From Heptranchias perlo (lineage: Eukaryota): a stretch of DNA of 64,000 bases. Under the pieces are notes generated by a model. It ran no database searches. It had not been told where the DNA came from and saw only the letters and a program-made list of their open reading frames with translations. Both the position numbers and the translations under genes were made by a program. This document shows positions 32,545 to 64,000 of this stretch, piece by piece (the first letter of the stretch is position 1; the number at the start of each line of letters is the position of its first letter). The DNA lies in assembly GCF_035084215.1 (NCBI RefSeq), contig NC_090348.1:44888001-44952000 (forward strand). Reading direction: 5' to 3'.

Positions 32545-33028
32545 TCCCGGGGATGAGGGAGCGGACATATGAGGAGAGGTTGAGTAGATTGGGACTCTAC
32601 TCATTGGAGTTCAGAAGAATGAGAGGCGATCATATTGAAACATATAAGATTGTGAAGGGGCTTGATCGGGTGGATGTGGTAAGGATGTTCCCAAGGATGG
32701 GTGAAACTAGAACTAGGGGGCATAATCTTAGAATAAGGGGCTGCTCTTTCAAAACTGAGATGAGGAGAAACTTCTTCACTCAGAGGGTAGTAGGTCTGTA
32801 GAATTTGCTGCCCCAGGAAGCTGTGGAAGCTACATCATTAAATAAATTTAAAACAGAAATAGACAGTTTCCTAGAAGTAAAGGGAATTAGGGGTTACGGG
32901 GAGCGGGCAGGAAATTGGACATGAATTTAGATTTGAGGTTAGGATCAGATCAGCCATGATATTATTGAATGGCGGAGCAGGCTCGAGGGGCCGATTGGCC
33001 TACTCCTGCTCCTATTTCTTATGTTCTT
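32545..33028 (+). mobile_element. CR1 3'-end fragment inserted in the ERV gag
   Basis: PGMRERTYEERLSRLGLYSLEFRRMRGD; tail CCTACTCCTGCTCCTATTTCTTATGTTCTT. Confidence 0.88.
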
Positions 33029-33499
33029 GTGTGGTCCCTCAACCACCGACACTGGTTTGCCCCCAGTTCTCGACTTTTGCAGCCTTCCCGTGGGTCTGGT
33101 GATGTGTTCTTTTACATCACCCCAGGCCTGAATAGCGAGTCTCAAAATTTTGTTCCACCTAACAATTTTACAGATGGATACACCCAGTGCAGTTTTCACT
33201 AATGGCTGCAAGTGACTTATAAACATTTGTTTAAACAACGTATCGTTTCACCGATCAGGTGGCGCTTGGTTTGGTAGTGCACGTGCTGGCTGAGTTGGCA
33301 CAATAGGTTGTGTCATCGCAAACATATCCAGCAACCGATTTGCGAAGTGGTAGGGTGCTCTGTAGGTCTCTGTACAGTCAGTGCACAAATTTGCATCAAA
33401 TTTAAGGTGTTTATTCCTAATGAATCCACTATTTCTTCAAACAGCACATCAGACCCATTTACTGCATAAGCGTCAGGAGTAATGCACAGTTTTAAGCCC

Positions 33500-47619: not shown

Positions 47620-50600
47620 CTAACGCACGGAGCGAGGGAGCACAAAGTAGCAGTGATCGACGGAGTCTGGTTTCGACAGAGTCTATAATTGGGAATTTGG
47701 TGAGTGAGGGGATTCGGTGCAGGAGGAGTGTGGTGCATTTGATTAGTCAGCAGAGCGGAGAGGAGCGTACTGAGAGCGGGTCACAGGTATCTCTTCTCTT
47801 TTCTTCTTTCTTAGGGCTGTGGGCTAAGTAACATAGCATAAAACTAATTTTTTTTAAAAAAAACTAAATTTAATTTAGTTATAGCAAGTAGCGTTTTTTA
47901 GTGAATCAAGGTCCCTAGTGTAGTTAACATTCTCTAAATTAAGAGTAATTTAAAGGAGTAAACTCCTTAAATGGAATAACTAACGAGCTTAATCTAAAGC
48001 AAGTCATGGCAGCAGAGCTCACACCCGTGATATGCTCCTCCTGCGCTATGTGGGAAGTCATGGACACTACCGGTGTCCCTGGCGACCATGTGTGCAGGAA
48101 GTGTGTCCAGCTACAGCTACTGGCTAACCACATTTCGGAGCTGGAGCTGCAGGTGGATTCACTGTGGAGCATCCGCGATGCTGAGATTATCATGGATAGC
48201 ACATTCAGTGAGGTGGTCACACCGCAAGTAAAGATTATGCAGGCAGAAAGGAAATGGGTGACCGACAGGTAGAGCAGGAGTCTCCTGGGGCCATCTCCCT
48301 CTCAAACAGATATTCCGCTTTGGATATTGTTGGGGGAGATGGCTTATATGGGAATGCAGCAAGAGTCAAGACTGTGGCACCACGAGTGACTCAGCTGCAC
48401 AGAAGGGGAGGAAAAAGAATGGGAGAGCAATAGTGATAGGGGATTCCATCATAAGAGGAACAGATAGATGTTTCTGCAGCCGCAGACGTGACTCCAGGAT
48501 GGTATGTTGCCTTCCTGGTGCTAGGATCAAGGACGTCACAGAGCGGCTGCAGGACATTCTGAAGGGGGAGGGTGAACAGCGAGAGGTCGTGGTCCATAGC
48601 GGTACCAACGACATCGGTAAAAAAAGGGATGAGGTCCTGCAAGCAGAATATAGGAAATAAATTAAAAAGCAGGACCTCTAAGGTAGTAATCTCAGGATTA
48701 CTCCCAGTGCCACGTGCTAGCGAGAGCAGAAATAGGAGAATAGACTAGATGAATGCGTGGCTTGAGAGACGGTGTAAGAGGGAGGGGTTTAAATTCCTGA
48801 GGCATTGGGACCGATTCTGGGAAAGGCGGGACCTGTACAAGCTGGACGGTTGCACCCAAGCAGAACCGGGACCAATATCCTCGCGGGGGCATTTGCTAAT
48901 TCTGTTGGGGAGGGTTTAAACTAGTATGGCGGGGGATGGGAACCAAAGGGCAGGTACAGATAGGACAAATTCAGAATAGGAAGCGGGAAGTAGAAAAGCA
49001 GTTAGTGACTTAGTTAGCGACTCAGAAAGGCAAAAGAAGCAAAGGTTAAATAGTGTTCAGCACAGGAATTTGACGGGGTTAAAGGGTATATACTTCAGTG
49101 CAAGGAGTATTACAAACAAAGCAGATGATCTAAGGGCACAGATAGACAGATGGCAGCATGATATTGCTATCATGGAAACCTGGCTTAAAGAGGGGGATAA
49201 TTTGCAGCTCAATATCCCTGGATATAGAGTTTTCAGGCAGGATAGAGTGGGTGATAAAAAAGGAAGGGGGGGGGGTTGCATTATTGGTTAAAGAATCAAT
49301 TACAGTTGTGAGAAGGGATGATATGCTAAATGGATCATCAATCGAGGCCATATGGGTTGAGCTAAGAAATAAAAAAGGGGCAGTCACACTACTAGGAGTG
49401 TACTATAGACCCCCGAATAGCGAAAGGGAGATAGAAGAACAAATATGTAGGCAAATTTCGAGTGCAAAAATAAGAGGGCAATAATAGTAGGGGACTTCAA
49501 CTACTCTAACATCAACTGGGATTCAAACAGTGTGAGGGGCACAGAGGGCACAAAATTATTGATCAGTGTCCAGGAGAACTTTTTTAGCCAGTACGTGACA
49601 AGTCCAACAAGAGGGGATGCAATTCTAGATTTAGTCCTGGGAAATGAAGATGGGCAAGTGGATGACCATATTGGGGATAGTGAGCACAATTCCGTTAGTT
49701 TTAGCATTATTATGGAAAAGGACAGATTTATATCAGGAGTAATTGTTTTAAATTGGGGAAGGCAAATTTTACAGAACTAAGAGGTGATTTGGCAGAAGTG
49801 GACTGGACACAACTACTTGAGAAATCAGTGGCAAGCCAGTGGGAGGCACTGAAAAGTGAAATTCTACGGGTACAATGCAGACACGTCCCGTCAAAGAAAA
49901 AGGGTGGCACTGCCAAATCTAGAGCCCCCCGGTTGTCTCGACGCATACAGGGCAAGATAAAGCAGAAAAAGAAAGTTTATGACTGTCACAGAAAACTGAA
50001 TACTGCAGAAAGCCTAGAGGAGTATAGAAAGTACAGGGATGACGTAAAAAAGGAAATAAGGAAAGCAAAGAGAGGGCATGAAAAAATATTAGCTAGTAAG
50101 ATTAAAGAAAACCCAAAGATGTTTTATCAGTACATTAAGAACAAGAGGATAGCTAAGGAAAAGGTGGGACCAATCAGGGATGATAAGGGTAACTTGTGTG
50201 TACAATTGGAGGATGTGGGTAGGGTTTGAAATGAATATTTTATCTCCGTATTCACAAAGGAAAGGGATGATCCAGACAGAGGAAAGGTGTGAAATATTGG
50301 ATAAGGTAAACATTACGAGGGAGGAAATACTAGAGGGACTGGAATTCTTGATATCCTTGGAATCTGAAAGTTGATAGGGCCGGATGGATTGTTTCCTAGG
50401 CTATTGAAGGAAGTCAGGGAGGAAATATCAGATGCTCTGAGGATCATTTTCCAATCCTCAGCAGATACAGGGGAGGTACCGGAGAACTGGAAGATTGCAA
50501 ACGTAGTACCATTGTTTAAAAAGGGTACGAGGGAAAGGCCGAACAATTATAGGCCAGTCAGTCTTACCTCGGTGGTGGGCAAACTATTAGAATCAATACT

Positions 50601-51925
50601 GATAGGATAAACTGTCACTTGGAAAGGCATGGTTTAATCAGGGATAGTCAGCATGGATTTGTTCAGGGAGGGTCATGCCTTACAAATCTGATTGAATTCT
50701 TTGAGGAAGAGACAAGGAGGATTGATGAGGGTAGTGCAGTGGATGATGTCTACATAGATTTTAGTAAGGCATTTGACAAGGTCCCACATGGAAAACTGGT
50801 CAGAAAGGTAAAAGCCCATGGGATACAGGGAAATATGACGAATTGGATCCAAAATTAGCTCAGTAACAGAAAACAAAGTGTAAAAATCAATGGATGTCTT
50901 TGCGAATGGAATTCCGTTTCCAGTGGTGTGCCACAGGGCTCAGTGTTTGGTCCCTTGCTGTTTGTGGTATATATTAATGATTTGGACTTGAATGTAGAGG
51001 GCATGATTGGCAAATTTGCAGATGACACAAAAATTGGCCGTGTAGTTGATAGTGAAGAGGATAGCTGTAGACTCCAAGAAGATATCAATGGGTTGGTAGA
51101 GTGGGCGGAAAAATGGCAAATGGAGTTCAACCCGGAGAAGTGTGAGGTAATGCATTTAGGGAGGGCAAACAGTAAAAGGGAATATGCAGTAAATGGGAAA
51201 ATATTGAGGGGTAGAGGAAGCGACAGACCTTGGAGTGCATGTGCATAGGTCCCTGAAGGTAGCAGTACAGGTAGATAAGGTTGTGAAGAAGGCATATGGA
51301 ATGCTCTCCGTTATTGGTCGAGGTATAGAATACAAAAGCAGGGATGTAATGATGGAACTGTATAAAACGCTGGTAAGGCCACAGCTGGAGTATTGTACGC
51401 AGTTCTGGTCACCACATTACAGGAATGGCATAATTGCTCTGGAGAGAGTGCAGAGAAGATTTACAAGAATGTTGTCAGGGCTTGAAAATTGCAGCTACGA
51501 GGTGAGATTGGATAGGCTGGGGTTGTTTTCCTTGGAGCAGAGGAGGCTAAGGGGAGACTTGATTGAGGTGTACAAAATTATGAGGGGCCCAGATAGAGTG
51601 GACAGGGAGTACCTGTTTCCCCTAGCGAAGAGTTCAAGAACTAGAGGACATACGGAAGCATTAGAGGGGACATGAGGAAAAACTTTTTTACCCAGAGGGT
51701 GGTGGCTGTATGGAATTCGCTGCCCGAATTGGTGGTAGAGGCAGGGACCCTCAACTCTTTTCAAAAGTACCTGGACCTGCATCTAAAGTGCTCTAAGCTG
51801 CAGGGCTACAGACCAGGTGCTGGAATGTGGGATTAGAATGGGCACCTGGTTGTTCTTTGAGCTGGCACGGACACAATGGGCTGAATGAACCCCTTCTGTG
51901 CTGTATCTTTTCTATGGTTTTCTAT
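47620..51925 (+). mobile_element. Near full-length CR1 LINE (ORF1 Cys-knuckle/coiled-coil plus SGNH esterase; ORF2 APE-RT), frameshifted
   Basis: ORF1 from 48006 MAAELTPVICSSCAMWEV...CRKC, IVIGDSIIRG...HSGTND; ORF2 IAIMETWL, YYRPPNS, PTRGDAILDLVL, PQGSVFGPLLF, FADD. Confidence 0.92.
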
Positions 51926-52910: not shown

Positions 52911-53274
52911 ACTTCCTCTGTCCCCCGGGGCTGGGCCGAGCTCAGCCTGTCGCTCAAGTGTGACCGCGGTCCCCTTTCTCTTCCGCCCCCACGCACAGAA
53001 TTGGTGATGGACTGGGGTGGACAAATGTAAGGAGTCTTACAGCATCAGGTTATAGTCCAACAGCTTTATTTGAAATCACAAGATTTCGCAGCTGTCCTCC
53101 TTGGTCACTCACCTGACGACTGTTGTCCGACTCCTGACATTGAGGCACAGAATTAACCAGTGCCTCCGATGTGCCGTTATCCGTGCATTCTCTCATATGG
53201 TGTTGCAAATGAGGTTGAAGAAGCAGATTCCAGTTCATTTAAACAAAGTAAAAACTGCAGATATTGGAAAGAAA

Positions 53275-53700
53275 TAACTTGTATTTTATATAGCACCTTT
53301 CGTGACCTCAGAAAGTCCCAAAGCGCTTTACAGCCAATACAGTGCGGAGATGTAGTCACTGTTGTAATGTAGGGAAATGCAGCAGTCAGCAAGGTCCCAC
53401 AAACAGCAGATAACGACCTGATTAAACTGTTTTAGTGGTGTTGGATGAGGAATAAATATTGGCCAGGACAGGAGGGAGGGGAAATCCCCACTTTTTTTTG
53501 AATAGTGCCCTGGGATCTTTTACGCCCACCTAAGAGGGTAGTTTTAATGTGTTATCTGAAAGACGGCACCTCTGACAGTGCAACGCTCCCTCAGTACAGC
53601 ACTAGAGTGTCAGCTGGAACTCAAGTCTCTGGAGTGGGACTTGAGAACCCACAACCTTCTGACTCAGAGGCACGAACGCTATCACCTGAGCCAAGGCTCA
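53275..53700 (-). mobile_element. DeuSINE-like SINE (duplicate ~63110-63535)
   Basis: Reverse complement of the SINE, including the CACAACCTTCTGACTCAGAGG head. Confidence 0.7.
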
Positions 53701-54259
53701 CACCTTGAAACAAATCTGAAATAAAAACAGAAAATGCTTGAGACGTTCTGTAGGCCAGTCAGCATCTGTGCAGAGCACAGGTTAATGGTTTGGGTGTGGA
53801 CTCTTGCTAAAAGATAAAAGGTGGACAGGCATGTTAATGGGAATTGAAAAATTGAGGGGTGGTGGGAAGAAAACAACAAACCCAGAGAGGAGTCATGAGT
53901 GGATTGACGTAACAAATTATCTCAGTCATGTAATAGCTAGAGGCGTAAAGACATTAAAGAAACAAAGTGTATGTAAATATCGATGAGAATGAGAGGCTTG
54001 GGGAAATGCGAGAAGATGGGAGAGATTGGTGTAGGGTATATAATAAACACAGGTTTAAAAGTGAGGATATAGTTCAAGACTGAATTTACTGAAGTGCTCA
54101 AGTCAGAGGGTTACAGGGTGCCTAGGAGCAAGATGAGATATTGTTCCTACATTGCAAGAATGACACCACTTCAGAAGTACTTCATTGCCTGTAAAGCGCT
54201 TTGGGATATCCTGAGGTCGTGAAAGGCGCTATATAAATGCAAGTCTTTCTTTCCAGAAG

Positions 54260-54774: not shown

Positions 54775-57700
54775 TTTTTTTTTATTCGTTCATGGGATGT
54801 GGGCGTCGCTGGCGAGGCCAGCATTTATTGCCCATCCCTAATTACCCTTGAGAAGGTGGTGGTGAGCCGCCGCCTTGAACCGCTGCAGTCCATGTGGTGA
54901 CGGTTCTCCCACAGTGCTGTTAGGAAGGGAGTTCCAGGATTTTGACCCAGCGACAATGAAGGAACGGCGATATATTTCCAAGTCGGGATGGTGTGTGACT
55001 TGGAGGGGAACGTGCAGGTGGTGTTGTTCCCATGTGCCTGCTGCTCTTGTCCCTCTAGGTGGTAGAGGTCGCGGGTTTGGGAGGTGCTGTCGAAGAAGCC
55101 TTGGCGAGTTGCTGCAGTGCATCCTGTGGATAGTGCACACTGCAGCCACAGTGCGCCGGTGGTGAAGGGAGTGAATGTTTAGGGTGGTGGATGGGGTGCC
55201 AATCAAGCGGGCTGCTTTATCTTGGATGGTGTCGAGCTTCTTGAGTGTTGTTGGAGCTGCACTCATCCAGGCAAGTGGAGAGTATTCCATCACACTCCTG
55301 ACTTGTGCCTTGTAGATGGTGGAAAGGCTTTGGGGAGTCAGGAGGTGAGTCACTCGCCGCAGAATACCCAGCCTCTGACCTGCTCTTGTAGCCACAGTAT
55401 TTATATGGCTGGTCCAGTTAAGTTTCTGGTCAATGGTGACCCCCAGGATGTTGATGGTGGGGGATTCGGCGATGGTAATGCCGTTGAATGTCAAGGGGAG
55501 GTGGTTAGACTCTCTCTTGTTGGAGATGGTCATTGCCTGGCACTTATCTGGCGCGAATGTTACTTGCCACTTATGAGCCCAAGCCTGGATGTTGTCCAGG
55601 TCTTGCTGCATGTGGGCTCGGACTGCTTCATTATTTGAGGGGTTGCGAATGGAACTGAACACTGTGCAGTCATCAGCGAACATCACTATTTCTGACCTTA
55701 TGATGGAGGGAAGGTCATTGATGAAGCAGCTGAAGATGGTTGGGCCGAGGACACTACCCTGAGGAACTCCTGCAGCAATGTCCTGGGGCTGAGATGATTG
55801 GCCTCCAACAACCACTACCATCTTCCTTTGTGCTAGGTATGACTCCAGCCACTGGAGAGTTTTCCCCCTGATTCCCATTGACTTCAATTTTACTAGGGCT
55901 CCTTGGTGCCACACTCGGTCAAATGCTGCCTTGATGTCAAGGGCAGTCACTCTCACCTCACCTCTGGAATTCAGCTCTTTTGTCCATGTTTGGACCAAGG
56001 CTGTAATGAGGTCTGGAGCCGAGTGGTCCTGGCGGAACCCAAACTGAGCATCGGTGAGCAGGTTATTGGTGAGTAAGTGCCGCTTGATAGCACTGTCGAC
56101 GACACCTTCCATCACTTTGCTGATGATTGAGAGTAGACTGATGGGGCGGTAATTGGCCGGATTGGATTTGTCCTGCTTTTTGTGGACAGGACATACCTGG
56201 GCAATTTTCCACATTGTCGGGTAGATGCCAGTGTTGTAGCTGTACTGGAACAGGTTGGCTTGAGGCGCAGCTCGTTCTGGAGCACAAGTCTTCAGCAGGG
56301 ATGTTGTCGGGGCCCATAGCCTTTGCTGTATCCAGTGCACTCAGCTGTTTCTTGATATCACGTGGAGTGAATTGAATTGGCCGAAGACTGGCTTCCGTGA
56401 TGGTGGGGATATCGGGAGGAGGCTGAGATGGATCATCCACTCGGCACTTCTGGCTGAAGATGGTTGCAAACGCTTCAGCCTTGGCTTTTGCACTCACATG
56501 CTGGACTCCGCCATCATTGAGGATGGGGATGTTTGCAGAGCCTCCTCCTCCCGTTAGTTGTTTAATTGTCCACCACCATTCACGACTGGATGTGGCAGGA
56601 CTGCAGAGCTTTGATCTGATCCGTTGGTTGTGGAATCGCTTAGCTCTGTCTATAGCATGTTGCTTCCGCTGTTTAGCATGCATGTAGTCCTGAGTTGTAG
56701 CTTCACCAGGTTGGCACCTCATCTTTAGGTACGCCTGGTGCTGCTCCTGGCATGCTCTTCTGCACTCCTCATTGAACCAGGGTTGATCCCCTGGCTTGTT
56801 GGTAATGGTAGAGTGAGGAATATGCCGGGCCATGAGGTTACAGATTGTGCTGGAATATAATTCTGCTGCTGCTGATGGCCCACAGCGCCTCATGGATGCC
56901 CAGTTTTGAGCTGCTAGATCCATTCTGAATCTATCCCATTTAGCACGGTGGTAGTGCCACACAACACGTTGGATGGTGTCCTCAGTGCAAAGACGGGACT
57001 TCATCTCCACAAGGACTGTGCGGTGGTCACTCCTACCAATACTGTCATGGACAGATGCATTTGCGACAGGTAGATTGGTGAGGACGAGGTCAAGTAAGTT
57101 TTTCCCTCGTGTTGGTTCGCTCACCACCTGCCGCAGGCCCAGTCTAGCAGCTATGTCCTTCAGGACTCGGCCAGCTCGGTTAGTAGTGGTGCTACCGAGC
57201 CACGCTTGGTGATGGACATTGAAGTCCCCCACCCAGAGTACATTTTGTGCCCTTGCTACCCTCAGTGCTTCCTCCAAGTGGTGCTCAACATGGAGGAGGA
57301 CTGATTCATCAGTTGAGGGAGGACGGTAGGTGGTAATCAGCAGGAGGTTTCCTTGCCCATGTTTGACCTGATGCCATGAGATTTCATGGGGTCCAGAGTC
57401 AATGTTGAGGACTCCCAGGGCCACTCCCTCCTGACTGTATATCACTGTACCGCCACCTCTGGTGGGTCTGTCATGCCGGTGGGACAGGACATACCCAGGG
57501 ATGGTGATGGAAGAGTCTGGGACATTGGCTGAAAGATATGATTCTGTAAGTATGGCTATGTCAGGCTGTTGCTTGACTAGTCTGTGGGACAGCTCTCCCA
57601 ATTTTGGCACAAGTCCCCAGATGTTAGTAAGGAGGACCTTGCAGGGTCGACTGGGCTTGGTGTTTTGCCGTTGTCGTGTCCGGTGCCTAGTGGTCCGATG

Positions 57701-58104
57701 CCGGGTGGGCCGTCCGTTTTTTAAAATTCTTATAGTGACTTTTCGTAGTGAGATTTTACAACTGAGTGGCTTGCTAGGCCATTACAGAGGGCAATTAAGA
57801 ATCAACCACATTGCTGTGGGTCTGGAGTCACGTATAGGCCAGACCGGGTAAGGACGGCAGGTTTCCTTCCCTAAAGGACATTAGTGAACCAGATGGGTTT
57901 TTACGACAATCCGGTAGTTTCATGGCCATCATTACTGATACTAGTATTTTAATTCCAGATTTTTATTTAATTAATTGAATTTAATTAATTAATTGAATTT
58001 AAATTCACCAGCTGCCGTGGCGGGATTTGAACTCATGACTCTGGATTTTAGTCCAGGCCTCTGGATTACTAGTCCAGTAACATAACCACTATGCTACCGT
58101 ACCC
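54775..58104 (-). mobile_element. Near-intact ORF1-less non-LTR retrotransposon (APE-RT, CR1/L2-group-like) with tRNA-derived 5' head
   Basis: APE motifs LLTNIWGL, ILTES, YRPP, GDFN, LDLVLT, SDH; RT motifs NYRPISLL, QFGFR, LDIKAAFDRVWH, GVPQGSVLGP, FADD; one frameshift near 56295; poly(A) at 54774-54783; the empty site TTGGATATTG is visible in the first CR1 copy. Confidence 0.9.
58015..58104 (-). promoter_or_regulatory. tRNA-like internal Pol III promoter (A and B boxes)
   Basis: A box TAGCATAGTGG (58086-58096), B box GAGTTCAAATCC (58023-58034). Confidence 0.75.
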
Positions 58105-61100
58105 ATATTGTTGGGGGAGATGGCTTATCGGGGAATGCAGCAAGAGCCAAGAGCCAAGACCGTGCAGGCTCGAGGGGCCGATTGGCCTACTCCTGCTCCC
58201 ATTTCTTATGTTCTTATGTGGCACCACGAGTGACTCAGCTGCACAGAAGGGGAGGAAAAAGAATGGGAGAGCAATAGTGATAGGGGATTCCATCGTAAGG
58301 GGAACAGATAGGTGTTTCTGCAGCCGCAGACGTGACTCCAGGATGGTATGTTGCCTTCCTGGTGCTAGGGTCAAGGACGTCACAGAGCGGCTGCAGGACA
58401 TTCTGAAGGGGGAGGGTGAACAGCGAGAGGTCGTGGTCCATAGCGGTACCAACGACATCGGTAAAAAAAGGGATGAGGTCCTGCAAGCAGAATATAGGAA
58501 ATAAATGAAAAAGCAGGACCTCTAAGGTAGTAATCTCAGGATTACTCCCAGTGCCACGTGCTAGCGAGAGCAGAAATAGGAGAATAGACTAGATGAATGC
58601 GTGGCTTGAGAGACGGTGTAGGAGGGAGGGGTTTAAATTCCTGAGGCATTGGGACCGATTCTGGGAAAGGCGGGACCTGTACAAGCTGGACGGTTGCACC
58701 CAAGCAGAACCGGGACCAATATCCTCGCGGGGGCATTTGCTAATTCTGTTGGGGAGGGTTTAAACTAGTATGGCGGGGGATGGGAACCAAAGGGCAGGTA
58801 CAGATAGGACAAATTCAGAATAGGAAGCGGGAAGTAGAAAAGCAGTTAGTGACTTAGTTCGCGACTCAGAAAGGCAAAAGAAGCAAAGGTTAAATAGTGT
58901 TCAGCACAGGAATTTGACGGGGTTAAAGGGTATCTACTTCAGTGCAAGGAGTATTACAAACAAAGCAGATGAGCTAAGGGCACAGATAGACACATGGCAG
59001 CATAGTATTGCTATAATGGAAACCTGGCTTAAAGAGGGGGATAATTGGCAGCTCAATATCCCTGGATATAGAGTTTTCAGGCAGGATAGAGTGGGTGATA
59101 AAAAAAAAGAGGGGGGGTAGCATTATTGGTTAAAGAATCAATTACAGTTGTGAGAAGGGATGATATGCTAAATGGATCATCAATCGAGGCCATATGGGTT
59201 GAGCTAAGAAATAAAAAAGGGGCAGTCACAATACTAGGAGTGTACTTTCGACCCCCGAATAGCGAAAGGGAGATAGAAGAACAAATATGTAGGCAAATTT
59301 CTGAGTGCAAAAATAAGATGGCACTAATAGTAGGGGACTTCAACTACTCACATCAACTGGGATTCAAACGGTTTGAGGGGCACAGAGGGCACAAAATTCT
59401 TGATCAGTGTCCAGGAGAACTTTTTTAGCCAGTACGTGACAAGCCCAACAAGAGGGGATGCAATTCTAGATTTAGTCCTGGGAAATGAAGATGGGCAAGT
59501 GGGTGAAGTGACAGTGGGTGACCATATTGGGGATAGTGAGCACAATTCCGTTAGTTTTAGCATTATTATGGAAAAGGACAGAGTTAAATCAGGAGTAAAT
59601 GTTTTAAATTGGGGAAGGCAAATTTTACAGAACTAAGAGGTGATTTGGCAGAAGTGGACTGGACACAACTACTTGAGAAATCAGTGGCAAGCCAGTGGGA
59701 GGCACTGAAAAGTGAAATTCTACAGGTACATTGCAGACACGTCCCGTCAAAGAAAAAGGGTGGCACTGCCAAATCTAGAGCCCCCCGGTTGTCTCGACGC
59801 ATACAGGGCAAGATAAAGCAGAAAATGAAAGTTTATGACTGTCACAGAAAACTGAATACTGCAGAAAGCCTAGAGGAGTATAGAAAGTACAGGGATGACG
59901 TAAAAAAGGAAATAAGGAAAGCAAAGAGAGGGCATGAAAAAATATTAGCTAGTAAGATTAAAGAAAACCAAAAGATGTTTTATCAGTACATTAAGAACAA
60001 GAGGATAGCTAAGGAAAAGGTGGGACCAATCAGGGATGATAAGGGTAACTTGTGTGTACAATTGGAGGATGTGGGTAGGGTTTTAAATGAATATTTTATC
60101 TCCGTATTCACAAAGGAAAGGGATGATCCGGACGTAGTAGTTAAAGAGGAAAGGTGTGAAATATTGGATAAGGTAAACATTACGAGAGAGGAAGTACTTG
60201 AGGGACTGGAATCCTTGAAAGTTGATTGGGCCGGATGGATTGTTTCCTAGGCTATTGAAGGAAGCCAGGGAGGAAATGCTCTGAGGATCATTTTCCAATT
60301 CTCAGTAGATACAGGGGAGGTACCAGAGGACTGGAAGACTGCAAACGTAGTACCATTGTTTAAATAGGGTACGAGGGAAAGGCCAAACAATTATAGGCCG
60401 GTCAGTCTTACCTCGGTGGTGGGAAAACTATTAGAATCAATACTGAGAGATAGGATAAACTGACACTTGGAAAGGCATGGTTTAATCAGGGACAGTCAGC
60501 ATGGATTTGTTCAGGAAAGGTCATGCCTTACAAATCTGATTGAATTCTTTGAGGAAGTGACAAGGAGGATTGATGAGGGTAGTGCAGTGGATGTTGTCTA
60601 CATGGATTTTAGTAAGGCATTTGACAAGGTCCCACATGGCAAACTGGTCAGAAAGGTAAAAGCCCATGGGATACAGGGAAATGTGAACAATTGGATCCAA
60701 AATTGGCTCAGTAACAGGAAACAAAGGGTAAAAGTCGATGGATGTCTTTGCGAATGGAATTCCGTTTCCAGTGGTGCGCCACAGGGCTCAGCTGTTTGTG
60801 GTATATATTAATGATTTAGACTTGAATGTAGGGGGCATGATTGGCAAATTTGCAGATGACACAAAAATTGGCCGTGGAGTTGATAGTGAAGAGGATAGCT
60901 GTAGACTCCAAGAAGATATCAATGGGTTGGTGGAGTGGGCGGAAAAATGGCAAATGGAGTTCAACCCGGAGAAGTGTGAGGTAATGCATTTCGGGAGGGC
61001 AAACAGTAAAAGGGAATATGCAGTAAATGGGAAAATATTGAGGGGTAGAGGAAGTGACAGACCTTGGAGTGCATGTGCATAGGTCCCTGAAGGTAGCAGT

Positions 61101-62434
61101 ACAGGTAGATAAGGTTGTGAAGAAGGCATATGGAATGCTCTCCGTTATTGGTCGAGGTATAGAATACAAAAGCAGGGATGTAATGATGGAACTGTATAAA
61201 AAGCTGGTAAGGCCACAGCTGGAGTATTGTACGCCGTTCTGGTCACCACATTACAGGAATGGCATAATTGCTCTGGAGAGAGTGCAGAGAAGATTTACAA
61301 GAATGTTGTCAGGGCTTGAAAATTGCAGCTACGAGGTGAGATTGGATAGGCTGGGGTTGTTTTCCTTGGAGCAGAGGAGGCTAAGGGGAGACTTGATTGA
61401 GGTGTACAAAATTATGAGGGGCCCAGATAGAGTGGACAGAGAGTACCTGTTTCCCCTAGCGAAGAGTTCAAGAACTAGAGGACATACGGAAGGATTAGAG
61501 GGGACATGAGGAAAAACTTTTTTACCCAGAGGGTGGTGGCTGTATGGAATTCGCTGCCCGAATTGGTGGTAGAGGCAGGGACCCTCAACTCTTTTCAAAA
61601 GTACCTGGACCTGCATCTAAAGTGCTCTAAGCTGCAGGGCTACAGACCAGGTGCTGGAATGTGGGATTAGAATGGGCACCTGGTTGTTCTTTGAGCTGGC
61701 ACGGACACAATGGGCTGAATGGCCCCCTTCTGTGCTGTATCTTTTCTATGGTTTTCTATCAGTACAATAAATACAATGATGTCAGACTTTAATGATGATT
61801 TTCACCAGGGCCTTGGAGAAAAGAATTGGTCCTATTATTATGGGTATTGATGAAATCATTGAGACAATGTAATCTGGTGTTCTGGAATATGTTTTCATCT
61901 TTAGTATTGTGTCAGCATCACCAATGTGTCGTTTTCCACACCACTATCCTTAAAAAAAAAACCTGTCTTGATATAGCGGTATTCACGACCTCAAGACATT
62001 CCAAAGTGCTTCACAGCCAATTAAGTGTGGTCACCGTTGTAATGTAGGAAACATGACAACCAATTTGCGCACAGCAAGCTCCCACAAATAGCAATGAGAT
62101 AGTGACCAGATCATCTGTTTTAGGTGTTGGTTGACAGATAAACATTGGCCATGTCTCCCTTGCTCATTGTTTAGCGCCCTGGGGGCTTCAACATCCACCC
62201 CGAGAAGGCAGATTGCGCCTGGGGTTTAACGTCCCATCCGAAAGACGGCACCTCGGGGAGTGCGGCAGTCCCCCGGTGGGGTGTCAGCCTTAGATTAGGT
62301 GCCCAAGTTTCTGGAGTGGGACTCGACGCCACGACCTTTTGACTCAGAGGCGAGAGCCTTTCTAAGGGAACATTGTAATTCGATCGCCGGCCATTAACTC
62401 ACCACATATCTCACCACCTTAAATCCACCTGCCA

Positions 62435-62743: not shown

Positions 62744-64000
62744 ACTTCCTCTGTCCCCGGGGCTGGGCCGAGCTCAGCCTGTCGCTCAAGTGTGACCGCG
62801 GTCCCCTTTCTCTTCCGCCCCCACGCACAGAATTGGTGATGGACTGGGGTGGACAAATGTAAGAAGTCTTACAGCATCAGGTTATAGTCCAACAGCTTTA
62901 TTTGAAATCACAAGCTTTCGCAGCTGTCCTCCTTGGTCACTCACCTGATGACTGTTGTCCGACTCCTGACATTGAGGCACAGAATTAACCAGTGCCTCCG
63001 ATGTGCCGTTATCCGTGCATTCTCTCATATGGTGTTGCAAATGAGGTTGAAGAAGCAGATTCCAGTTCATTTAAACAAAGTAAAAACTGCAGATCTTGGA
63101 AAGAAATAACTTGTATTTTATATAGCACCTTTCGTGACCTCAGAAAGTCCCAAAGCGCTTTACAGCCAATACAGTGCGGAGATGTAGTCACTGTTGTAAT
63201 GTAGGGAAATGCAGCAGTCAGCAAGGTCCCACAAACAGCAGATAACGACCTGATTAAACTGTTTTAGTGGTGTTGGATGAGGAATAAATATTGGCCAGGA
63301 CAGGAGGGAGGGGAAATCCCCACTTTTTTTTTGAATAGTGCCCTGGGATCTTTTACGCCCACCTAAGAGGGTAGTTTTAATGTGTCATCTGAAAGTCGGC
63401 ACCTCTGACAGTGCAACGCTCCCTCAGTACAGCACTAGAGTGTCAGCTGGAACTCAAGTCTCTGGAGTGGGACTTGAGAACCCACAACCTTCTGACTCAG
63501 AGGCACGAACGCTATCACCTGAGCCAAGGCTCACACCTTGAAACAAATCTGAAATAAAAACAGAAAATGCTTGAGACGTTCTGTAGGCCAGTCAGCATCT
63601 GTGCAGAGCACAGGTTAATGGTTTGGGTGTGGACTCTTGCTAAAAGATAAAAGGTGGACAGGCATGTTAATGGGAATTGAAAAATTGAGGGGTGGTGGGA
63701 AGAAAACAACAAACCCAGAGAGGAGTCATGAGTGGATTGACGTAACAAATTATCTCAGTCATGTAATAGCTAGAGGCGTAAAGACATTAAAGAAACAAAG
63801 TGTATGTAAATATCGATGAGAATGAGAGGCTTGGGGAAATGCGAGAAGATGGGAGAGATTGGTGTAGGGTATATAATAAACACAGGTTTAAAAGTGAGGA
63901 TATAGTTCAAGACTGAATTTACTGAAGTGCTCAAGTCAGAGGGTTACAGGGTGCCTAGGAGCAAGATGAGATATTGTTCCTACATTGCAAGAATGACACC

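Follow-up and report, generated by a model that had tools for sequence, protein, structure and literature searches.

Results

Organization of the insertion

A complete copy of a Zenon-type LINE lies on the minus strand of the 64-kb window, by which we mean the whole stretch of DNA analyzed. Read on that strand from 58104 to 54775, the element starts with a tRNA-like head, continues with an AT-rich palindrome, a structured body and an APE-RT coding region, and ends in a stem-loop and nine A residues. Its parts are as follows.

54775..58104, minus strand: whole Zenon-type LINE copy, 3,330 nt, delimited by the empty site at 48141-50144 and by 26 full-length copies that are 95-100% alike
58015..58104, minus strand: tRNA-derived head, recognized by sequence and a weak match to Rfam RF00005; the anticodon arm is duplicated in this subfamily
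58096-58086, minus strand: A box, read directly (nt 9-19 of the element)
58034-58022, minus strand: B box, read directly (nt 71-83 of the element)
57950..58004, minus strand: AT-rich palindromic spacer, with A-runs and no TTTT
57760..57925, minus strand: conserved structured 5′ body with a multi-helix fold, near-invariant across seven consensuses and not a Deu domain
57767..57781, minus strand: hairpin with a 7-nt anticodon-type loop, CUAGCAA (predicted pair probabilities 0.93-0.99)
57749-57746, minus strand: GCUA partner of the hairpin loop, from a partner scan; it reads ACTA in this copy
57630..57757, minus strand: in-frame Arg/Thr-rich leader without an AUG; a private gain of 4 nt near 57725 gives its only TTTT
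57023..57625, minus strand: APE endonuclease (EN) domain (PF03372, PF14529), entirely 5′ of the first in-frame ATG (57004)
56290..56300, minus strand: frame-breaking loss of 8 nt, from sequence comparison of this copy with the family
55432..56178, minus strand: reverse transcriptase (RT) domain (PF00078, E 4.7e-40)
54775..54840, minus strand: stop codon, 3′ stem-loop and short A-tail (9-10 nt), without an internal Pol III terminator

A preliminary description of this copy had proposed that head, APE-RT ORF and poly(A) tail entered as a single insert, and the empty copy of the host repeat at 48141-50144 demonstrates that they did. The host is a CR1-like repeat in which the Zenon copy sits antisense; at the filled site the two flanks have a 2-nt overlap (AT). 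The same description was correct that the element has no ORF1, as just 350 nt separate its 5′ end from the frame, and that its sense strand carries a single TTTT (57723-57726), with no second one in the element and 20 runs of A4. The first in-frame ATG, likewise placed far into the ORF by the earlier account, is at 57004, which corresponds to residue 260 of the stop-to-stop frame 57781-56063. However, the assertion that the frame is open from about 57781 is true of this copy and not of the family, in which the opening lies about 25 nt further 3′. Both the sole TTTT and the apparent opening at 57781 result from the private 4-nt gain. This copy is not intact, because it lacks 8 nt near 56297, which puts EN and RT in different frames.

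A multicopy family in which the head is linked to the ORF

In a search of the same genome, 40 of 12,490 candidates were scored and 30 ORF-ranked loci were fetched. At least 26 full-length copies with head and tail are present at unrelated sites (26 of the 30 loci), each comprising a tRNA head, a single APE-RT frame of 973 codons and a short A-tail (A8-10). The suggestion that other full-length copies carry the tRNA head is thus borne out, and it extends to all seven shark and ray Zenon consensuses described below. When loci were ranked by head instead, 25 of 30 continue into the ORF and the other five are internal deletions. The junction of head, body and ORF is the same in 48 copies at different sites, and heads are also present on older copies that are 86-93% alike (L174, L177, L180, L210, L225). 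The 973-codon frame is unbroken in five copies (L013, L015, L017, L019, L021). Long target-site duplications were sought and rejected as a feature of the family: duplications are shorter than 3 nt in 17 of 23 copies, 3 nt in five and 5 nt in one.

Zenon sequences make up 20.6 of 470 kb (4.4%) in a genome sample of 47 stretches picked by round coordinates. The 3′ end of the element is reached by 21 of 28 matches in this sample and the 5′ end by two of 28, a truncation pattern that is usual for LINEs.

Correspondence to elasmobranch Zenon

Judged by sequence, the family matches the elasmobranch Zenon (CR1-Zenon) LINEs. Three motifs of 12-15 nt from the element match only Zenon rows in the supplement of PMC13343379 (6, 6 and 7 matches), and by eye the first 400 nt of the CarCar, HypSab, RhiTyp, ScyCan and SquAca-1/2/3 Zenon rows correspond to its head, body and leader. 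The same head opens all seven of these elasmobranch consensuses, which represent great white, whale shark, catshark, dogfish and a stingray. By eye, the head is absent from the 400 nt given there for two hagfish rows and a coelacanth row of Zenon; T4 runs occur in the hagfish and coelacanth segments and in none of the seven elasmobranch ones. The lack of ORF1 and the single APE+RT frame are Zenon-like, as is the poly-A tail, which only Zenon has among CR1-group elements (PMC13343379). In a quick unlabelled RT tree, which contained no labelled Zenon RT, the family falls in a seven-row group (SH-aLRT 98), and the other CR1-type RTs of this genome lie outside it.

Contigs of three other organisms carry head, body and EN, and some of them join the end of the body to the start of EN. 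Pieces of the ORF at 79-83% identity are also found in predicted proteins of three sharks. In public annotation such pieces are spliced into predicted host proteins (P0002, P0010, P0015-P0017), which are most likely gene-model errors.

In the closest outside relative (L093, 37%) the 5′ region is long and of a different sequence; it contains 17 T4 runs, and no tRNA match was found in it. By eye, two copies of a short, structured-looking repeat at L093:100-490 look like the beginning of the Zenon-2 row from hagfish; this repeat may be a self-cleaving ribozyme such as those of RTE 5′ ends. Among 80 outgroup metagenome LINE loci, none shows similarity to the head, and no tRNA or 5S head was detected with Rfam in the 13 that were scanned.

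That the Zenon LINE family exists, lacks ORF1 and ends in an A-tail has been published before (PMC13343379). The words "tRNA", "polymerase III" and "start codon" are absent from the main text of that paper and "tRNA" from the first 400 characters of the cells of its supplement, and a whale shark preprint, in the part consulted, mentions CR1-Zenon-like LINEs merely as a repeat class. In the literature searched, which mostly left out subscription papers and Repbase Reports, we found no description of the fixed tRNA head, the avoidance of T-runs or the AUG-less start, and no account of any coding LINE that has a tRNA head or is driven by Pol III.

The tRNA-derived head and structured body

The A and B boxes stand at SINE-like spacing from +1, as in Pol III type-2 units. 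Resemblance of the head to tRNA is weak by the Rfam model (58041-58096; 22.3 bits versus a gathering threshold of 29, E 0.53), and ARAGORN called no tRNA on the element. The duplicated anticodon arm is a 20-nt repeat (D4), and older heads of the family have a single arm. Variation in the B box (0.0135) is like that of the rest of the element, and neutral copies cannot reveal selection on the A and B boxes.

The 5′ 461 nt of L013 are predicted to fold with a z-score of -4.6, and an Rfam search gave no IRES match in the element. We considered whether head and body represent SacSINE1 or its Deu domain and rejected this label, since the Deu motifs of the PMC7245038 supplement are absent from the element. 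The same motifs occur eight times elsewhere in the window. The Zenon head may match a SINE entry in Repbase or Dfam; SacSINE1 is set apart here by the Deu motifs.

Avoidance of T-runs

A test of T4 depletion against shuffled codons had been suggested in the preliminary description. We took the intact copy L013 as reference and applied nulls based on base composition, codon shuffles and a dinucleotide model. Against base composition, L013 has seven T3 where 22.1 are expected (P 0.0002) and zero T4 where 4.5 are expected (P 0.011), with A, C and G runs near expectation. Under the dinucleotide null TTT is again depleted (7 versus 17.5, P 0.003). A mild deficit is seen for CCC as well (P 0.013), and TTT is not depleted in four control LINEs. 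The avoidance of TTT is thus significant and absent from the other LINEs examined here, but the evidence from TTTT is weak, as a T4 count of zero is not significant alone (P 0.065-0.11 versus codon shuffles, P 0.10 versus the dinucleotide null). Codon context points in the same direction as TTT: a codon before a TT-codon ends in T in 0 of 22 cases versus 203 of 748 elsewhere (P 0.002), and TTT serves for 3 of 19 Phe codons (P 0.05).

The 26 full-length copies average 0.15 T4 per copy. Most copies lack TTTT entirely, and the single TTTT of this copy is private. In sampled, unselected DNA, 27 family segments contain three T4 where 26 are expected, although these segments all descend from a single ancestor and amount to roughly one sample; 57 segments of other LINEs contain 175 versus 132 expected. 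T4 occurs in every one of 48 outgroup ORFs (from those of the 80 loci whose match spans 1.5 kb or more), and their lowest T3 ratio is 0.61, versus 0.34 here. One unrelated metagenome LINE ORF (L134:585-2111) is also T4-poor, with 1 versus 11.8 expected, the 5′ end being missing from L134; another (L172:971-3556) has 10 versus 30.3.

T-runs at some 3′ ends were entertained as built-in terminators and rejected. They are likely post-insertion changes, because the same drift from AATAAA to AATTTT occurs inside copies. The Zenon sense strand is T-poor (20%), and T is the mutable base in a TpA hotspot that extends across the element: T before A changes to C, G or A in 10-25% of copies, compared with an average of 1.4% (for example at nt 234, 257, 271, 331, 414, 524, 918, 1850 and 2216 of L013). 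The cause may be RT error, RNA modification or host mutation. Together, the hotspot and the T-poor strand could lower T-runs without selection.

Translation start and selection on the frame

The absence of an early in-frame AUG, which the preliminary description had noticed in one copy, applies to the family copies of this genome. The first Met is codon 250 in four of the unbroken copies (L013, L015, L017, L021), and only two of 48 copies have an in-frame ATG in the leader. The fifth unbroken copy, L019, gained an in-frame ATG at codon 4 by CpG decay. In another copy, L056, both stops after a short uORF are lost; as changes in single copies, this loss and the ATG gain in L019 are probably due to chance. 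Six of the seven consensuses, which come from other species, show a leader ATG, so AUG-lessness is unproven outside this genome. By eye, this ATG is located about 25 nt after GCTA, out of the EN frame in the stingray and in frame in the short SquAca_Zenon-2.

Codons 41-249, where the endonuclease is encoded, show the signature of selection on protein sequence. Variants shared by at least four copies are seven synonymous to two non-synonymous (pN/pS 0.10, CpG sites left out), compared with 0.65 for private variants in the same codons and similar to the 0.15 of the rest of the frame. Differences to other organisms upstream of the first Met fall at third positions in 15 of 25 cases. Because these codons precede the first Met and are under purifying selection, we infer that the protein starts in the leader. 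Leader length is frame-preserving in 42 of 48 copies; the eight length classes differ by multiples of three, although this argument is weakened because some of the differences follow 3- and 15-nt repeats.

The hairpin loop CUAGCAA is patterned like an anticodon loop. Within the region, a single 4-nt sequence can pair with it by Watson-Crick rules: GCUA, of which GCU is codon 3 of the frame. By eye, GCTA follows after a variable spacer of 6-7 nt in all seven consensuses, and GCT is in the leader frame in four but not in SquAca-1 and -2, the frame being directly fixable only in the stingray row. The pairing was noticed post hoc and shows no covariation, both partners being invariant. Hairpin and GCU are a candidate for a tRNA-mimic start device.

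Two other ideas were weighed. Initiation at ACG (codon 4) is weakened by its absence from older copies and from the stingray row. A two-codon uORF, AUG GCC UAG, is present at the end of the body, and variation of its TAG was considered as selection for read-through and rejected, as this site is one of many TpA hotspots.

Short derivatives of the LINE

A two-anchor pattern search found 98 body-to-tail joints within 30 nt, with many different junctions, and the reversed control found none. The heads of five young short elements group with those of young LINE copies, with 98-99% identity, and a deletion junction that recurs is present on both single-arm and duplicated-arm heads. The short head+tail elements are best read as repeated internal deletions of the Zenon LINE; with Deu motifs lacking in that LINE, they are not SacSINE1. 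The earlier conjecture that the LINE is parent to bipartite SINE-like elements is thereby upheld. By the definition of a SINE (SINE2) as non-autonomous and without a protein, the short derivatives qualify and the full element, with its 973-codon frame under purifying selection, does not.

Discussion

Proposed transcription and translation of the element

With moderate confidence, based on the sequences compared here, we favor the view that this family is an autonomous single-ORF LINE, likely transcribed by Pol III from its A and B boxes and likely translated from a non-AUG start behind the 5′ body. TFIIIC and Pol III would start at +1 and encounter no T4 terminator over the 3.3 kb of the element. 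Transcription would stop in the flank, or the RNA would be cut near AATAAA, and the uncapped RNA would recruit ribosomes through the structured 5′ body. The Zenon protein would bind the 3′ stem-loop, and copies would be inserted by target-primed reverse transcription, which is established for LINEs. As a tentative addition, translation might start by pairing of the anticodon-like hairpin with the in-frame GCU, in the manner of the PKI domain of dicistrovirus IGR IRESs, where an anticodon-loop mimic pairs with an in-frame codon-like triplet before an AUG-less frame. This comparison is an analogy only, the Zenon hairpin having neither an Rfam match nor covariation. A more far-reaching and rather doubtful version is that of an autonomous SINE, which before the split of sharks and rays would have swapped its promoter for a tRNA head, cleared its 3-kb coding sequence of Pol III terminators and adopted translation of an uncapped RNA by a tRNA-mimic pseudoknot, as in a viral IGR IRES.

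Alternatively, the element could be a Pol II LINE with a captured tRNA-like 5′ end, in which the head is a relic or a TFIIIC insulator or enhancer. Transcripts would then come from its own or flanking Pol II promoters, and the poverty in T would reflect composition and mutation bias. LINEs are held to be Pol II products (PMC5786205), an AATAAA precedes the A-tail, and both the weak significance of zero T4 and the TpA hotspot suit such an explanation. Nevertheless, elements begin exactly at the tRNA +1 here and in the seven consensuses, and the avoidance of TTT persists under composition and dinucleotide controls and is not shared by the genome's other LINEs. A Pol II mRNA is also awkward because AATAAA occurs at nt 138 and 379 of the sense strand; these sites and the upstream AUGs would hinder a capped, scanned message. 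We consider this explanation improbable.

A different possibility concerns translation and is compatible with either polymerase: the protein might be made from an out-of-frame leader AUG with a -1 frameshift, or by reinitiation or read-through at the uORF. Consistent with this are the leader ATG of the six consensuses, in frame (by eye) in SquAca_Zenon-2, and the upstream ATGs of L013, seven of nine of which are in the ORF frame, the last one 27 nt before the ORF. However, the triplet matching the leader ATG is ATA in the copies of this genome, which amplified widely; in-frame leader ATGs are as rare here as noted above; and leader length variants 5′ of the triplet keep the EN frame. We consider such a start quite unlikely. 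Finally, a one-off chimera, formed by a 5′-truncated LINE behind a SINE or by a single template switch, has precedent in the origins of SINEs (PMC5499810) but is refuted, with next to no probability remaining, by the junction shared among 48 copies at different sites and the seven shark and ray consensuses.

In the textbook division, LINEs encode protein and are transcribed by Pol II, and SINEs are parasites that use Pol III and encode nothing. A family that occupies about 4% of a shark genome sample and seemingly combines LINE and SINE traits would break this division. If the Pol III reading with a non-AUG start is true, the family provides a natural example of a long Pol III RNA that encodes protein, and of translation in a vertebrate genome that needs neither cap nor AUG; if the autonomous-SINE version is true, it is a natural family of Pol III genes that code for protein and a constant source of new SINEs. 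The one-step route to new SINEs by deletion is demonstrated here. Intact copies exist (for example L013 and L015), which makes direct cell assays possible.

Comparison with known elements

Elasmobranch Zenon as described by Stuart et al. 2026 (PMC13343379) shares the lack of ORF1, the A-tail, the APE+RT frame and a length of 3.2-3.3 kb, and the head goes unmentioned in the text and supplement cells covered above. Intact ORF2 is nearly absent from that survey (for example 3/612, 0/2313 and 1/1419), and the small number of intact shark Zenon ORFs would be explained by an AUG-based ORF call. Lepidopteran Zenon (PMC6740152) is similarly single-ORF, about 3.3 kb long and A-tailed, and it also repeatedly spawns short elements made of its 5′ and 3′ ends (Persaeus), with microhomologies. 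In the passages of that paper considered here, Persaeus is without tRNA homology or a Pol III promoter, whereas the shark derivatives are complete tRNA-headed SINE-like elements.

Typical tRNA-derived SINEs (SINE2; SacSINE1, CmiSINEs; PMC5499810) share the order of head with A and B boxes, body and LINE-type tail, but they are non-coding and depend on a partner LINE. SacSINE1 in addition combines a Deu domain with an L2 tail, whereas the Zenon element lacks the Deu motifs (PMC7245038). In the bipartite LINE model of SINE origin (Kojima 2018, PMC5786205), the SINE middle and tail likewise come from the 5′ and 3′ ends of a LINE. That model has the RNA head added after the deletion, whereas here the coding parent is already headed, and in the portion of the paper considered it names only RTE and Vingi/Ingi/R2.

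Other features of the window

The host repeat is itself a CR1-type LINE with an RT frame (58073-58504, 59424-61482 and 48141-51648, all plus strand), and we take its ORF1 stretch to be GDSL-esterase-like. Its two copies, one empty and the other with the Zenon insert, are about 97% alike and 10 kb apart. A 58-nt fragment of another repeat in the right flank (58164-58221; also at 32977-33034) is absent from the empty paralogue. Deu-domain SINE copies, probably of SacSINE1 type, are found at 202-277, 22631, 34456, 52395, 53505, 62230 and 63338. Positions 53000-54167 and 62832-64000 are duplicates with 99.4% identity and belong to a local duplication of recent date, whose period is near 9.8 kb.
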